Part shown: positions 5,680-10,614 of the stretch, in pieces | Layout of the letters: every line of letters starts with the position of its first letter | How positions within the stretch are numbered: the first letter of the stretch is position 1 | The notes under the pieces: model-generated | The model's input: the letters and a program-made list of their open reading frames with translations, nothing else | Databases searched by the model: none | What the model was told of the DNA's origin: nothing | Position numbers and translations under genes: made by a program | Source: Bacillota bacterium | GTDB lineage: Bacteria > Bacillota > SHA-98 > UBA4971 | DNA length: 64,000 nt | Direction of reading: 5' to 3' | Assembly (NCBI GenBank): GCA_050261335.1 | Contig: JBLNDE010000038.1 | Coordinates: forward strand, 6,102 to 70,101

Positions 5680-5823
5680 GGACACAGCGAAGATGCCGGT
5701 CGCATTCCCGGGTCATCCGCCCTGGTAAAGATCGTCAGCGGACGCCGGCATCATGGTTCCTGCGATCTCCTGAGCGGCTGCAAATCGCGATACCGTGCCA
5801 TCCGTTACTCCCTCCGTCAAGTC

Positions 5824-6300
5824 TTATTCCGTCAGGTCCCAAAGGCAGGAAGCCGGTTCCTGCCCTGACAGAGCGACGAGGGCTCGAAGCGCCAGGGCGT
5901 AGCCGAGAGGGCCGAGGCCCGAGATCTGTCCGCGCGCCACGGGGGCGATCACCGAGTGGTGGCGGAACTCATCGCGGGCGTAAATGTTTGAGAGGTGGAC
6001 CTCGATGGTTGGGAGCCCGCTGCCGCCGATGGCGTCGCGGATGGCGACACTGTAATGGGTATACGCTGCAGGATTGATGACGAGGCCGTGGCAGCGGTCC
6101 GCGGCGTCCCATATGAGGCTCACGATCTCCCCCTCATGGTTCGTCTGGTGGATCTCGACCGTCACGCCGAGGGCCCGGGCTTCCTGTTCGATGAGACCGT
6201 TGATGCTGTCAAGGGTTTGAGACCCATAGATACCTGGCTCCCGCAGGCCCAATCGGTCCAGGTTCGGGCCATGAATTACCATGATAGTAGTGTCCGCCAT
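5824..6300 (-). CDS. aroQ: Type II 3-dehydroquinate dehydratase
   Basis: HGPNLDRLGLREPGIYG, INPAAYTHYS, EVHLSNIYARDEFRHHS; GGAGG RBS before ATG 6300. Confidence 0.95.
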   Translation of the reverse strand: MADTTIMVIHGPNLDRLGLREPGIYGSQTLDSINGLIEQEARALGVTVEIHQTNHEGEIVSLIWDAADRCHGLVINPAAYTHYSVAIRDAIGGSGLPTIEVHLSNIYARDEFRHHSVIAPVARGQISGLGPLGYALALRALVALSGQEPASCLWDLTE

Positions 6301-6426
6301 GTTTTCCCCTCCTGTCTCGTGGGCATCTCCCAAAGGTGCTCATCTCGGTATCACGCTTGCACACATCGCGGTCGCCTAAGCCAGGGTGCGTTAGTTCTTG
6401 TCTTCTTGCCAGCAGTTGCCGGAAGC

Positions 6427-6928
6427 GTTCGCCACGTCACGATTAGCGGCTATCGGGCGACGCACATCACTGGTCACGGCCGCCCTACCCGTTCCCAACG
6501 TGACATGTGCCAGGGGACGCGTGACGTGCGTCACTCGTCAGGCTCTTCCCGTTCCGTACCTCACGGATCGGGACCCGATCCGTGAGGTACGTCATCCTTC
6601 CCGCCTTACCCGTTCCCTCCGTCGCACGTTCCTCATGAAGAGTTCCCCACGTCACGCATTCGGGCCTGACCCGCGACGAGCATCATCACTGCCGCCGTAT
6701 TCGCTCCCTGCGCCACGGATCCCCCACGAAGTGTTCCATACGTCACTCGTCGAAACTGGACAGGTGACGGACGTCACGGGTGCTTCCGCAACCGTTCCGC
6801 ACATCCCGCTTGAGAGCCGTCCACTGACGTACATCACCGGTCCGGTCCTGACCCGTTCCCCGTGTCACGCGTGCAGGGGGACCGGTGCTACGCGTCACTC
6901 TTTCCGCCCCACCCGTTCCGTACATCAC
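6427..6928. repeat. Non-coding array of 17 degenerate 14-bp boxes (GT[TC/GA]CNNRCRTCAC) separated by variable spacers, mostly 16-17 bp
   Basis: Box starts at 6427, 6457, 6491, 6521, 6551, 6582, 6612, 6642, 6673, 6703, 6733, 6764, 6794, 6824, 6855, 6885, 6915. Confidence 0.8.
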
Positions 6929-7062
6929 GGGTCTTCCGCGAACGGTTTTCAGGGAACCGCGAGGTCAACTCTAGGGCCACCGGCGCCGGGGGTCGCCCTC
7001 CTAGACAAGCCCGCCAGGTCCACGAGGCCGCGCCGCGGCACTTCGTGTCCGGGAAAGTGGCA

Positions 7063-9039
7063 TCAGTTAGTGGCCAGATCGCCCTGAGGGCCAGCGAGGG
7101 CGATCCCGCTGGGACCAGCTCGCGCGCTCTGGCCAGGCATGACTATCTCCTCCGCCAGCGCTTCCGCGGCCGGATCCTCGCAGACGGAGCATCTTCCTAT
7201 GGAGAGCGGCAGCACGACGCGAAGCTTGCCCCCACGGGCTTTCTTGTCAAGGGCCATAGCGGCCAGGATGGATTTGCGGAGGGCGTCACCGTCCGCGAGT
7301 GGGACCGACGTTGGCAACCCAAGGCCTGCGAGCAGTCGGATCACCTGCGCCGAGGCGTCCTCCTGAAGGTAGCCCAGGCGCGCGGATGCGCGACAAGCCG
7401 CGGCAAGACCTATCGCCACGGCTTCTCCGTGGGTCCAGCGCCGAAAGCCGCCAGCCCGCTCGATGGCGTGGCCGAGCGTGTGGCCGAGGTTGAGGAGCAG
7501 GCGGTCTCCTGTGTCGCGCTCGTCCGTGGCCACGATCTTGGCCTTAACCATGACCGCCCTGCGGACGATGTCCTGCCACAAGGCAGGTTCCTGCTGGAGG
7601 GTCCGGGCTGCGGCGAACCTGGCGGCGCGCGGACGCCGGAGGCCGGCGGTGCGGCGCCCATCGGTCGAACAGGTGTCGGCGCCGTCCGCTACCAGGGCCA
7701 CGTGCTCCAGAGTCTCGAAGAGATCTGGGTCCCCGATGACCGCGGCCTTGACTACTTCTGCGAGACCGCTCGTGAGATCGCGCAGTGGCAACGTCCCCAG
7801 AGTGGTGATGTCTGCTATCACGGCCGCGGGCTGCCAGAACGTGCCGGCGAGGTTCTTGGCGGCCCGGAGGTTGATCGCGGTCTTCCCGCCGACGGCGCTG
7901 TCCACCATTGCCAGCAGCGTGGTGGGCACGTGGACCAGCCTGACCCCGCGCATGTATGTGGCGGCGAAGAACCCAGCCACATCGCCGACGGTGCCGCCTC
8001 CAAGTGCGATCACCAGCGAGTCGCGGCCGGCACCGGAGGCCGCGGCGAGGTCGTACAGCTTCGCCAGGGTTGCAAGGCTTTTCGCTCTCTCTCCCTCGGC
8101 GACCATGGCCCACGCGATGGGCGGGGCGCAGCCAAGCCAGCAGCGAAGGCCTTCTTCGAGTCGCCCGCCGAAGAGCGACCGGAGCAGGGGGGTGGTGACC
8201 ACGATGATCCTGCCGGGAGGCCGCCCGCCGCCGGAGCTTCTGTGGCCAAGGGCCGTGTCGTACGTGCCTGGACGGGGGAGAAGGCCGCGGCCAGCGAGGT
8301 ACGGGTACACTGCGGTTCCCGCGGAGACCTCGAGCAGGTACGGTTCATCGCGATCCGGCTGCGCTTCGTCCCGATGCTCGCACACACCGCGTGAACTCCG
8401 AACCGGGACAGCCTGCTCTCCGGCCGCACCGCAGGTTTCCGAACCGTCCGCGAGGGGCGGGCACGCCGCCGTCCACGCGATCTTGCGGACTATCTCGCGG
8501 ACGATGTCCTCGGGGCGCTTGCCGTCGGTATCGATGGCGACGTGCGCTTGCCGGTATCCTTGCTCCCGCGCGCTCATCAGGGAGCGTACCCGCTCTATGT
8601 CGGCCTTTCCTTGGAGCACCGGCCTTGAATCCATCCCAGGCGCGTGCTCGGAGGAGCCGTCTTCGGAGCTGTCCGGCCACGGCCGCAGGCGGGCGAGGAC
8701 GCTCTCAGGGGACGCGCGCAGCCATACGAGAAGGCCCGCGCGCTTCAGGGCCTTGACGTTTCGCCGGTCCATGAGCGCTCCGCCGCCCACGGAGATGACG
8801 GTGCTGTTGAGCCTCGAGGCCTGCCTCACCGCGCGGGCTTCCATGCGTCTGAACCAGGCTTCCCCGCGCGTCCGGAAGATCTCGCTGATGGTGGCGCCTG
8901 CCTCCGATTCGATGAGGGCGTCGGTATCGAGAAACGCCATCCCGAGCAGCGCGGCAAGGCACGCGCCGACGGAGGACTTGCCCGCCCCCATGAAGCCCGT
9001 CAGTATGATGTTGGTAGCTGTAGTCGGTACGGTCGTCAT
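7063..9039 (-). CDS. aroB: Bifunctional shikimate kinase / 3-dehydroquinate synthase (AroK-AroB fusion)
   Basis: N-terminal GFMGAGKSS and GEAWFRRME (AroK); C-terminal GGGTVGDVAGF, PTTLLAMVDSAVGGKT, LNLGHTLGHAIE (AroB). Confidence 0.92.
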   Translation of the reverse strand: MTTVPTTATNIILTGFMGAGKSSVGACLAALLGMAFLDTDALIESEAGATISEIFRTRGEAWFRRMEARAVRQASRLNSTVISVGGGALMDRRNVKALKRAGLLVWLRASPESVLARLRPWPDSSEDGSSEHAPGMDSRPVLQGKADIERVRSLMSAREQGYRQAHVAIDTDGKRPEDIVREIVRKIAWTAACPPLADGSETCGAAGEQAVPVRSSRGVCEHRDEAQPDRDEPYLLEVSAGTAVYPYLAGRGLLPRPGTYDTALGHRSSGGGRPPGRIIVVTTPLLRSLFGGRLEEGLRCWLGCAPPIAWAMVAEGERAKSLATLAKLYDLAAASGAGRDSLVIALGGGTVGDVAGFFAATYMRGVRLVHVPTTLLAMVDSAVGGKTAINLRAAKNLAGTFWQPAAVIADITTLGTLPLRDLTSGLAEVVKAAVIGDPDLFETLEHVALVADGADTCSTDGRRTAGLRRPRAARFAAARTLQQEPALWQDIVRRAVMVKAKIVATDERDTGDRLLLNLGHTLGHAIERAGGFRRWTHGEAVAIGLAAACRASARLGYLQEDASAQVIRLLAGLGLPTSVPLADGDALRKSILAAMALDKKARGGKLRVVLPLSIGRCSVCEDPAAEALAEEIVMPGQSARAGPSGIALAGPQGDLATN

Positions 9040-9153: not shown

Positions 9154-10614
9154 TCACCAGGGCCGGCAGCCGCCCTCAGGTCCGGGGGCCCCGCATCTTT
9201 GTGCCACTTCGTCGAGGTACACGCGCAGGCGGGCCGCCATCTCGCCTACACTGTCGCCCCCGAACTTGGCCAGGAAGGCGTCGGCCAGCACAAGGGCCAC
9301 CATGGCCTCGGCCACCACGGCGCAGGCCGGGACTGCGCAGGTGTCGGTACGTTCATAGTGGGCGACACCTTCACGCCCGGTGCCCAGCTCAACTGAGCGT
9401 AGCGGCGCTCTCATCGTGTTTATCGGCTTCATCACCGCGTTGAGCCATAGCGGCATCCCGTTCGTCATCCCGCCTTCGAGGCCGCCCCCGTGGTTCGAAA
9501 GCCGTCGAATTCCTCTTACGCTGCTTACGCTGCCGCTGCGGCCGGCCTCGACCATGGTCCCGGGCCAGGCACTGACACTTCCAGAGCCGTGCACACCGGC
9601 AACGGCGCGGGAATTACCAGCATCGGCATGAGCGTCAGGCACGGCGCCGGCACGGGCATCGGGACCTGCACCCACCGTGGGTTCCAGGGAGCCCGTGCCG
9701 GACCATGCAGCCACCATTTCGTCTGCAGCTGCACCTCCCATGAGTTCAGCCAGACGGAATCCGTCGCCGAGTTCCATGCCCCTGACCCCCGGAATGCTCA
9801 TGACCGCCTGGGCGAGCCTGCCGTCGAGCCGCAGGTCCCACTGGGTATAGGTGCCGAGGCCCGGCGGAAGCCCCCACGCGATGACCTGGAACACCCCGCC
9901 GACGCTTTGTCCCAGGGACGCCGCATCGTCGATGCGCCGCATCATCCTTGCAGCCGCCTCGCCATCCGCACACCGCACCGGGGACGACTCCACGGCTTCG
10001 AGGAGGCCGGGGTCAGGCGGTCCCACCAGGAGGGACTCCCGGAGCGGGGCCCACTCTCCCCCGATGCAGAGGACGTGTGAAGCAACGGTGACACCGAACT
10101 GTGCAAGGAGGCGTTTCACGACGGCGCCAGCCGCCACCCTGGCAGCGGTCTCCCGCGCACTCGCCCGTTCGAGCACATCCCTCATGTCGTCGTGCCCGAA
10201 CTTGAGTGCTCCCGCGAGGTCCGCATGCCCAGGCCTCGGCATGATCACGGGTTCCCGGTGTGCCGTGCCGACCGCGTGCTGTGCGGGCGAACCCTCCCCT
10301 GTCGCGTCGCGGACCTCCCCTGCCAGGCTAGCCCATGGGCTCATGACATCCGCCCAGTTGGGGTAGTCCAGATTGGGGACCTCCATCACGATGGGCGAAC
10401 CCAGGGTTAGCCCGTTCCTGAGGCCCGCCGTGACACGCGCGCGATCACGCTCGATTCTCATGCGCTGCCCGCGCCCGTAGCCGCTCTGTCGCCGGGCGAG
10501 ATCCCGGTCGATGTCCTCGGGCTCAAGGCGGAGGCCTGCGGGGACACCGTCCAGCACCACGGTGAGAGCGGGGCCGTGCGACTCACCGGCAGTGAGAAAC
10601 CTCAGCGAACTCAA
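9154..10614 (-). CDS. aroC: Chorismate synthase, with low-complexity insertions
   Basis: TAGESHG, RPGHADL, ERASARETAARVAAG, GGLEGGMTNG, YERTD. Confidence 0.94.
   Translation of the reverse strand: MSSLRFLTAGESHGPALTVVLDGVPAGLRLEPEDIDRDLARRQSGYGRGQRMRIERDRARVTAGLRNGLTLGSPIVMEVPNLDYPNWADVMSPWASLAGEVRDATGEGSPAQHAVGTAHREPVIMPRPGHADLAGALKFGHDDMRDVLERASARETAARVAAGAVVKRLLAQFGVTVASHVLCIGGEWAPLRESLLVGPPDPGLLEAVESSPVRCADGEAAARMMRRIDDAASLGQSVGGVFQVIAWGLPPGLGTYTQWDLRLDGRLAQAVMSIPGVRGMELGDGFRLAELMGGAAADEMVAAWSGTGSLEPTVGAGPDARAGAVPDAHADAGNSRAVAGVHGSGSVSAWPGTMVEAGRSGSVSSVRGIRRLSNHGGGLEGGMTNGMPLWLNAVMKPINTMRAPLRSVELGTGREGVAHYERTDTCAVPACAVVAEAMVALVLADAFLAKFGGDSVGEMAARLRVYLDEVAQRCGAPGPEGGCRPW

Follow-up and report, generated by a model that had tools for sequence, protein, structure and literature searches.

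A phased array of CRP-like boxes between aroK-aroB and aroQ as the probable core of an old MITE-like repeat in uncultured Bacillota

Introduction

Between the aroK-aroB fusion and aroQ of a high-GC Bacillota genome there is a run of short boxes that return every 30 or 31 bp, and the question is what such a regular structure is and whether it has anything to do with the aro genes on either side. The original prediction, made from the letters of the window (the whole 64-kb stretch of DNA analysed), offered three readings: an array of protein-binding sites, centromere-like or serving as a nucleoprotein scaffold; a BIME-like mosaic built by recombination; or a precursor cut into small RNAs of ~30 nt. 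We have compared the array with the rest of the genome that carries it (hereafter the source genome), with the other genomes of the genus and with those of the class. From these sequence comparisons, the array probably forms the inner part of a single copy, old and damaged at one end, of a composite, non-coding, MITE-like element of ~0.6 kb. Its boxes would be docking sites for a dimeric helix-turn-helix protein.

The array in the window

The presence of 17 phased boxes at 6427-6928 was confirmed. Automatic placement gives box-to-box gaps of 30 and 34 bp, then 30, 30, 31 four times over, and finally 30, 30 (Table 1). The 64-kb window matches the strict box pattern GTKMNNNNNRTCAC 15 times, and ten of these matches fall within 6427-6928 (at eight places, two of them palindromes counted on each strand), while shuffled windows contain 4.61 +/- 2.23 matches and none of 100 shuffles reaches 15, which is far above chance. 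Two box types can be distinguished, the A type GTTCCnnnCGTCAC and the B type, the palindrome GTGACGnnCGTCAC. Both exist as described originally, but they do not alternate strictly (the triads read ABA, BAA, BAA, BAB and ABA). Likewise, the idea of spacers with constant length and variable sequence holds inside the array, where they differ from each other, but not between copies at other loci, where they are conserved. Tandem Repeats Finder at a score of 30 did not report the window array because its units are too dissimilar. The single 34-bp gap represents a gain of 3 bp, since the genome G001, of the same genus, has 31 bp at the same place. One A box, its spacer and the following B box make up a perfect hairpin, the G001 orthologue of which is imperfect at two pairs.

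Table 1. Features at the aro locus, in positions of the window.
Feature	Position	Strand	Evidence or remark
aroQ (type II 3-dehydroquinase), downstream in the direction of transcription	5824..6300	-	Pfam DHquinase_II, E 8.8e-56; ATG at 6300, GGAGG upstream
Fragment of a different dispersed repeat (CTAAGCCAGGGTGCGTTAGTTC...GTTGCCGG)	6376..6422	.	Abuts the array at the expected position of the element's left end
Array, 17 boxes (14 bp) with 16-17-bp spacers	6427..6928	+	Homologous to 34 other arrays of the genome
Box starts	6427, 6457, 6491, 6521, 6551, 6582, 6612, 6642, 6673		
Box starts, continued	6703, 6733, 6764, 6794, 6824, 6855, 6885, 6915		
Perfect hairpin, 18-nt arms (A box, spacer and next B box)	6555..6591	.	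Inverted repeat I4, 100% complementary
Putative right terminal region of the element, degenerate terminal inverted repeat	6929..7075	+	By-eye alignment to full-length right ends
aroK-aroB fusion (shikimate kinase and 3-dehydroquinate synthase), upstream	7063..9039	-	Pfam SKI, DHQ_synthase and DHQS_C on one 658-aa ORF

The aro locus

The array occupies a gap of ~760 bp between two minus-strand genes, and its assignment to the interior of an aro cluster was correct: an aroE-like gene and aroC are found further upstream of aroK-aroB, and the whole cluster (aroE-like, aroC, aroK-aroB, aroQ) lies on the minus strand. The extent first assigned, 6427..6928, describes the array well but not the element, which continues to about 7075, so that the right end of the window copy overlaps the last codons and the stop of aroK-aroB. 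The left end is missing, and the first box abuts the fragment of another dispersed repeat. Query positions 4-43 of this fragment match many places in G003-G008, and a fuller form of it is present in the gaps of G004 and G006.

The equivalent gap between aroK-aroB and aroQ measures 762 bp in G001, with the array present and 95% identity, and 0-220 bp in seven other genomes of the genus. At this site G004 retains ~50 bp of the end of the element together with the other repeat and no array, G005 retains one unit and G007 decayed pieces. The simplest reading of these remnants is an old insertion, later eroded in most lineages; the copy would have landed between aroK-aroB and aroQ in the ancestor of this genus of uncultured high-GC Bacillota. 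A promoter and terminator scan of the minus strand between the two genes gave no match, and read-through from aroK-aroB across the array into aroQ is therefore likely. The array at this locus would be a passenger, probably read through within the aro transcript, rather than a regulator of aro. Its connection to the aro operon is incidental and nothing special follows for the operon, the relatives having lost the old insertion without visible consequence.

A dispersed family of intergenic arrays

The scan of the genome for further phased arrays that had been proposed with the original prediction was fruitful. A PWM of the box, combined with nhmmer searches using the window copy, identified 35 arrays with a total of 417 boxes in the source genome (a 3.17-Mb draft of 63.7% GC), a dispersed family and not the single-locus decayed minisatellite that had been named as a possible alternative. 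All 35 are intergenic according to crude GC3-based ORF calls, with a doubtful overlapping ORF at one locus. The rhythm is very constant: of the 382 gaps, 260 measure 30 bp and 101 measure 31 bp (361 together), and with few exceptions two gaps of 30 bp are followed by one of 31 bp. Each array holds from 2 to 22 boxes between common end regions, and the boxes of any one array all score on one strand, the A boxes being directional. Thirteen arrays with the canonical rhythm align free of gaps at a mean pairwise identity of 70%, with the same 15 modules in the same order, and even the spacer columns are conserved at 0.68-0.82 across these 13 copies.

Copies cease to resemble each other within ~250 bp of the arrays, and neither a larger common element nor a linked gene was found. 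Neither transposase nor Cas proteins appeared among 35 flanking proteins at 20 loci; these were unrelated housekeeping and regulatory genes, and the only recurrent family was that of the LacI-type regulators (three cases). A repeat of ~205 bp seen beside some arrays is a separate family.

Ends of the element

Full-length copies are non-coding, measure 609-636 bp and have terminal inverted repeats of 14-20 bp with TA at both flanks. The ends read GTACTGCTCTGT...ACAGAGCAGTAC between the two TA dinucleotides, the right end being the reverse complement of the left. The left end can also be written as TA followed by GTACTGCTCTGTYA, and the ends as TAGTACTGCTCTGT. When pairs of ends were located in the nine genomes of the genus, they were found 609-636 bp apart with an array between them or 137-149 bp apart without it. 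The short form of ~138 bp is the long form reduced to its two end regions, with no array. At one locus (L143) a long and a short element abut with one TA in common. Terminal inverted repeats, TA flanks and a short form are, judged from the sequence, the anatomy of a MITE.

IS630 elements duplicate TA on insertion, and the flanks of the element presumably point to a parent of this type. A parent transposase with matching ends was not detected in the nine draft genomes of the genus, assemblies prone to losing insertion sequences. Searches with DDE_3 in the same nine genomes retrieved short fragments only, two of them below the cut-off and two broken by stops, and none near the ends of the element. 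In the source genome, pairs of the 12-mer end found 1.1-4 kb apart enclose no transposase-sized ORF. Comparison of filled with empty sites gave no clean empty site displaying the TA duplication. A weak box-like 14-mer close to the left end, on its inner side, scores 4-7.8 bits, more than the 99.9th percentile of the background, and its counterpart at the right end only -5.8. As many positions were tried, the left-end 14-mer is no more than a lead, which keeps a transposase among the candidate readers of the boxes.

Copies come and go between genomes, and they also change in length. At the site of one copy of the source genome (C58:126281), G004 has no array and keeps ~150 bp of the end. This junction (in contig C57 of G004) resembles a deletion rather than an empty target because of an AGA microhomology and the retained element end. 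The copy in contig C57 of the source genome is present in G001 and absent from G003, G004, G005 and G006, where the gaps measure 138-438 bp. The G001 orthologue of a 21-box array (C15:51698) is shorter by 182 bp, that is, by 2 x 91 bp. Array length changes in steps of 91 bp.

Distribution in the class and beyond

With the full element as query, 8 of the 22 genomes of the class match. The matches include six of the eight other genomes of the genus (none in G007 and G008) and a weak one in G020. A pattern of three boxes that disregards the spacers recovered arrays in 7 of the 22 genomes and none in the controls; it found no array in G007, G008, any of the eight genomes of the genus g3, G009, G018 and G019, in agreement with the search by the full element. 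Such a patchy distribution fits a mobile or dispensable element and not an essential site of the host.

Among the seven genomes are G020 and G021, each a member of another family of the class, with homologous or similar arrays. Those of G020 have module types in common with the genus. In G021 the spacers are different, the GC content is 51% and the boxes are almost exclusively palindromic. In both, the spacing is mostly 30 or 31 bp, with a few gaps of 38 or 60 bp, and the inverted repeats of the MITE ends are absent. The strict 30, 30, 31 order is therefore a trait of the MITE lineage, and the spacing of roughly 30 bp the general trait. Since arrays exist in other families without these ends, the box and the ~30-bp spacing outlive both the spacers and the termini, and the absence of inverted repeats from the arrays of G020 and G021 means that the array may spread or persist by another route.

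A scan with the pattern, in which each species was represented by a single genome, listed 80 loci, 26 of them with at least two matches. Among the loci listed, these 26 belong to three records, all named Bacillota or Firmicutes bacterium, and the single-match loci span many phyla. Collections of plasmids and phages gave no match, and viral contigs gave two single matches with the A-B pattern (the level expected by chance) and none with the B-B pattern.

A candidate reader of the boxes

The consensus of the B box, GTGACGTACATCAC (from 371 boxes), is a GTGA-N6-TCAC palindrome of which the A boxes retain the right half only; the inner YGTACR is conserved. The site of CRP is given as TGTGAN6TCACA (PMC4117774), and the B box does fit the core of this site, as the original prediction had noted for operators of the CRP/FNR type. 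The bases that flank the boxes are mostly C and G, and the T and A with which the full CRP consensus begins and ends are not kept. Another difference with such operators is the series of 15-21 consecutive sites, 30-31 bp apart, within a mobile repeat.

The source genome encodes, in contig C8 (L169:599-1294), a CRP-type protein of 231 aa that matches the solved CRP of M. tuberculosis (3d0s, E 1.3e-38), its recognition helix RETVTR aligning to RETVNK. The gene is found in 19 of the 22 genomes of the class, also in G007 and G008, which have no array, and for this reason there is no co-occurrence of gene and arrays. The arrays contain the sequence GTGAYRNNYRTCAC 56 times, and 8 further copies lie outside them. 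Four of the outside sites are located inside genes and two intergenic ones resemble remnants of the element. As it is nearly absent outside arrays, no host regulon with single sites is visible. In one unrelated contig from a metagenome, a gene of the Crp/Fnr family is directly followed by three such boxes at 31-bp intervals. The metagenomic loci L161, L165 and L166/L168 have few long ORFs, without any family match.

The best reading of the boxes themselves would be an array of protein-binding sites spaced by about three helical turns, because box and spacing are kept across three families while the spacers change and because the core is of the CRP type. The boxes would be docking sites on one face of the DNA, met every ~3 helical turns. 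The docking protein would be a dimeric helix-turn-helix protein, most boxes being GTGA-N6-TCAC palindromes or half-palindromes. The best candidate is the CRP-type regulator of the host, with the transposase of an unseen parent element as a possible alternative. Were the boxes read by the CRP-type regulator, a mobile repeat would be spreading whole batteries of phased transcription-factor sites, and the genome would carry far more such sites in selfish DNA than in promoters, which bears on the titration of regulators and on the seeding of new regulatory DNA.

A different way to arrange the same elements is to consider the array, and not the MITE, as the old and meaningful unit: phased CRP-type sites, one per ~3 helical turns, that would cooperatively load a dimeric helix-turn-helix protein and wind the DNA into a compact nucleoprotein coil, captured in one genus by a TA-targeting MITE that multiplied a few copies to dozens. 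We regard this version as tentative and on the whole unlikely. If it were right, the ~400 high-affinity sites might tie up a global regulator, or they might label DNA to the advantage of the element.

Constraint on the boxes

The information content was calculated from 783 box-plus-spacer units of 72 arrays (855 boxes). The positions of the box, and a T located four bases after it, reach 1-2.5 bits, and the other spacer positions 0.1-0.9. The picture is different in place, i.e., in four arrays that are orthologous between the source genome and G001. Here the boxes differ at 42 of 966 positions and the spacers at 70 of 1104 (Fisher p 0.051), compared with 26 differences among 603 third codon positions in aroQ and aroKB. 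Inserted copies are under no clear purifying selection, their divergence being near neutral and about the synonymous rate. Conservation of the boxes at the level of the lineage together with near-neutral rates in place leads us to read selection as acting on the lineage of the element. The sites would then matter for its spread or retention and not for each inserted copy.

The near-neutral divergence of the orthologues, with boxes and spacers separated only by the p value above, would also be expected if the boxes had no reader at all. In that case the array would be a passenger minisatellite grown by slippage or unequal exchange inside the MITE, and its conservation would derive from youth or gene conversion. 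The length shifts by 91-bp steps and the short form that moves without an array go in the same direction, and a MITE that carries a minisatellite is known, BrickBuilt (PMC4596501). The array varies in length, as a VNTR does, but its units are too unlike each other for Tandem Repeats Finder and their module order is fixed. Against a passenger without a reader, the spacers within one element have strongly diverged and the boxes have not. Only 21 of the 382 gaps deviate from 30 or 31 bp despite a sequence divergence of ~30%, and G021 retains both box and spacing although its spacers are unrelated and its GC content is 51%. We therefore hold such a passenger to be unlikely, and keep to docking sites in a MITE-like element.

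A role for the arrays at the level of the host is improbable. They might be phased CRP-type platforms that wrap DNA, either to organise the nucleoid or to buffer the free regulator like a sponge, and the ~400 boxes per genome (with almost none outside arrays), the CRP-type core next to a CRP-type protein of the host, the spacing of about three helical turns and the conservation of arrays across three families speak for it. Against it stand the patchy distribution, e.g., the absence from G007 and G008 of the same genus, the fact that several species have lost the array between aroK-aroB and aroQ, the near-neutral rates in place and the lack of a consistent strand bias. The centromere-like or scaffold role first suggested thus finds no support, given that patchy distribution and near-neutral evolution in place.

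Coding, RNA and CRISPR readings

The array does not encode a protein repeat, as had been anticipated. In the 13 copies, stops appear in all six frames in 12 and there is no 3-base periodicity, the conservation over the three codon phases being flat (0.820, 0.803 and 0.815). An ORF of 229 aa at 6398-7087 was considered and rejected, as it belongs to no Pfam family and the other copies are full of stops.

An RNA element is very improbable. It would be a co-transcribed array that folds into hairpins stabilising or processing the mRNA, or that yields RNAs of ~30 nt. The read-through made likely by the promoter and terminator scan and the perfect hairpin of the window array, of 18 bp, would suit such a role, and BOX, ERIC and Correia repeats are described as working at the RNA level (PMC3049150). 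Yet adjacent boxes show no covariation: the 283 A-to-B junctions have 1776 Watson-Crick pairs, compared with 1766.7 +/- 10.8 when re-paired (z 0.85), and their G-U pairs are equally frequent on both strands. Folds of whole arrays are weak (z-scores of -2.4 and -1.85 against shuffles), and an Rfam scan of 5800-7600 with E up to 10 produced chance-level miRNA and snoRNA names on the hairpin only. The orientation relative to genes is contradictory as well. With respect to the nearest genes, the GTTCC...TCAC strand is antisense in 12 of 15 co-directional contexts, and within +/-15 kb it coincides with the majority gene strand in 18 cases versus 8, and with the G-rich strand in 16 versus 8. Since the two orientation tests disagree, we claim no strand bias. 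The suggested precursor of ~30-nt RNAs in particular gains nothing from these data, with no covariation, weak folding and few spacer sequences common to all loci.

A degenerate or miniature CRISPR-like array, finally, can be discarded for practical purposes in spite of the regular repeat-spacer layout and of one G020 array located ~440 bp upstream of a Cas6-family gene, because the same few spacers recur at every locus, the boxes are variable and 14 bp long instead of near-identical repeats of 23 bp or more, and no cas gene is found among the 35 flanking proteins at 20 loci or beside the window array (the absence of cas from the window, as originally stated, holds for the genes adjoining the array, the only ones checked).

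Comparison with known repeats

There are precedents for composite intergenic repeats in which end modules enclose an inner array of variable length, such as BOX (PMC3049150) and BrickBuilt (PMC4596501), and the pneumococcal BOX and the P. gingivalis BrickBuilt MITE appear to be, by architecture, the closest known relatives in kind. BOX of Streptococcus pneumoniae, boxA - boxB(n) - boxC, is described as composite, intergenic, non-coding and dispersed, with terminal modules of the inverted-repeat type around variable tandem inner units, found in a few related species only and regarded as parasitic (PMC3049150), all of it as here. BOX differs in that it repeats copies of one 45-bp boxB, whereas here 15 non-identical modules follow a set order with a 30/30/31 rhythm. 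The element described here has, in addition, a high-GC host and TA-flanked ends, the comparison of the two being one of architecture.

BrickBuilt is likewise described as a MITE that has leader and tail subunits, ends in small inverted repeats and encloses a tandem array, with 19 intergenic copies and a limited host range (PMC4596501). Its repeats are given as 23 nt long and without spacers (PMC4596501), whereas those of the array are 14-bp palindromic or half-palindromic boxes separated by unit-specific spacers of 16-17 bp. Unlike BrickBuilt, the array also occurs without MITE ends in other families.

BIME and REP sequences of enterobacteria are built from short palindromic units in alternating orientation, with set linkers and a variable unit number. 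They are described as mosaic intergenic clusters (PMC3049150), and the BIME-like mosaic of the original prediction is right as far as the element is dispersed, composite and intergenic, with a variable number of inner units. Its TA-flanked terminal inverted repeats and its co-oriented boxes, all in the same direction, place it nearer to MITEs and BOX than to BIMEs. Inverted repeats flanked by TA also form the ends of RUP and of other TA-targeting MITEs associated with IS630-type transposases, and RUP has been linked to IS630-Spn1 (PMC3049150). No matching IS630-type transposase was found for our element in the nine genomes of the genus, and its long form carries a 450-bp array. What seems new is that each unit is a box plus a spacer, that the phase is fixed, that the palindrome is of the CRP type and that sister families have the array but not the MITE ends. 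A limited search of the literature on MITEs combined with CRP sites found no paper uniting both.

Assembly and read-level observations

About eight of the 35 loci are at contig ends, and a G001 locus bridges the end of contig C64 of the source genome to the start of C27 by way of an array. The repeat therefore breaks the assembly, and the family does so in short-read assemblies of Bacillota from digesters and oil fields. In public DNA runs, the summed depth over the array was ~2 to 20 times that of the flanks in X1 and X2 and not in X5, the value being a sum over all contigs and hence not a copy number. Contigs of X5 have loose ends, compatible with an array-less allele. A form 3 bp shorter at 6479 prevails in the contigs of the four public runs. 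The 91-bp length steps of the arrays could serve as strain markers.

Internal hairpin and repeats adjoining the arrays

The array in the aro gap, the spacer between the aroK-aroB fusion and aroQ, contains a perfect hairpin that differs from its orthologue in G001, another genome of the same genus, by two changes, and the pairing is better through both of them. Since no covariation is seen across the family of array copies as a whole, this looks less like the outcome of selection than like a quasi-palindrome that has undergone templated correction. The coordinates of this and the other features are collected in the table.

Features within and around the arrays
Feature	Sequence	Position	Remarks
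Perfect hairpin	Window	6555-6591	18-bp arms
Second dispersed repeat, CTAAGCCAGGGTGCGTTAGTTC...GTTGCCGG...	Window	6376-6422	Directly against array
aroK-aroB fusion	Window	7063-9039	One 658-aa ORF
Chorismate synthase ORF	Window	9154-10614	486 aa, long
~205-bp repeat	L106 (G000:C15)	1278-1482	Beside 21-box array
Array	L157 (G020:C52:116400-121500)	2472-2790	Another family of the class
Cas6-family ORF	L157	3233-3985	PF01881, E 5e-8

Other repeated sequences adjoin the arrays. The first 40 bases of the second dispersed repeat have dozens of matches in genomes of the same genus (G003-G008), and fuller copies, of about 75-125 bp, were found in the aro gap of G004 (L011) and in one spacer of G006 (L130). 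The ~205-bp repeat, present in many copies in G001, G003, G004 and G005, adjoins some of the arrays; it does not resemble the array element and is a family of its own. Short tandem runs of 8-12-bp units, e.g. CCCCAAGT/CCGCAAAT as well as CTCCACA-like ones, immediately flank the right side of two arrays in the bacterium's own genome, G000 (the C58:22075 and C49:47643 copies).

The array element has probably also split the assembly of this genome. A single locus of G001 matches the final 727 bases of contig C64 as well as the initial 810 bases of contig C27, with an array in between, and to judge from this alignment the two contigs are probably neighbours.

Neighbouring genes and look-alike arrays

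Within the aro genes upstream of the array, the 327 positions of the Pfam match to the chorismate synthase ORF are stretched across residues 4-448, which suggests that the protein carries an insert. One array of G020, a genome from another family of the class, lies upstream of a Cas6-family gene at a distance of ~440 bp, probably as a chance neighbour.

Arrays of GTGAYnTRTGTCAC-like palindromes appear also in unrelated metagenome contigs of lower GC (L166/L168, L167, L165 and L162). Nine 31-bp units are arranged in tandem in L166/L168, and the 14 boxes of L167 are spaced by 31 or 43 bp. In L162, a Crp/Fnr-family gene is followed at once by three boxes 31 bp apart.
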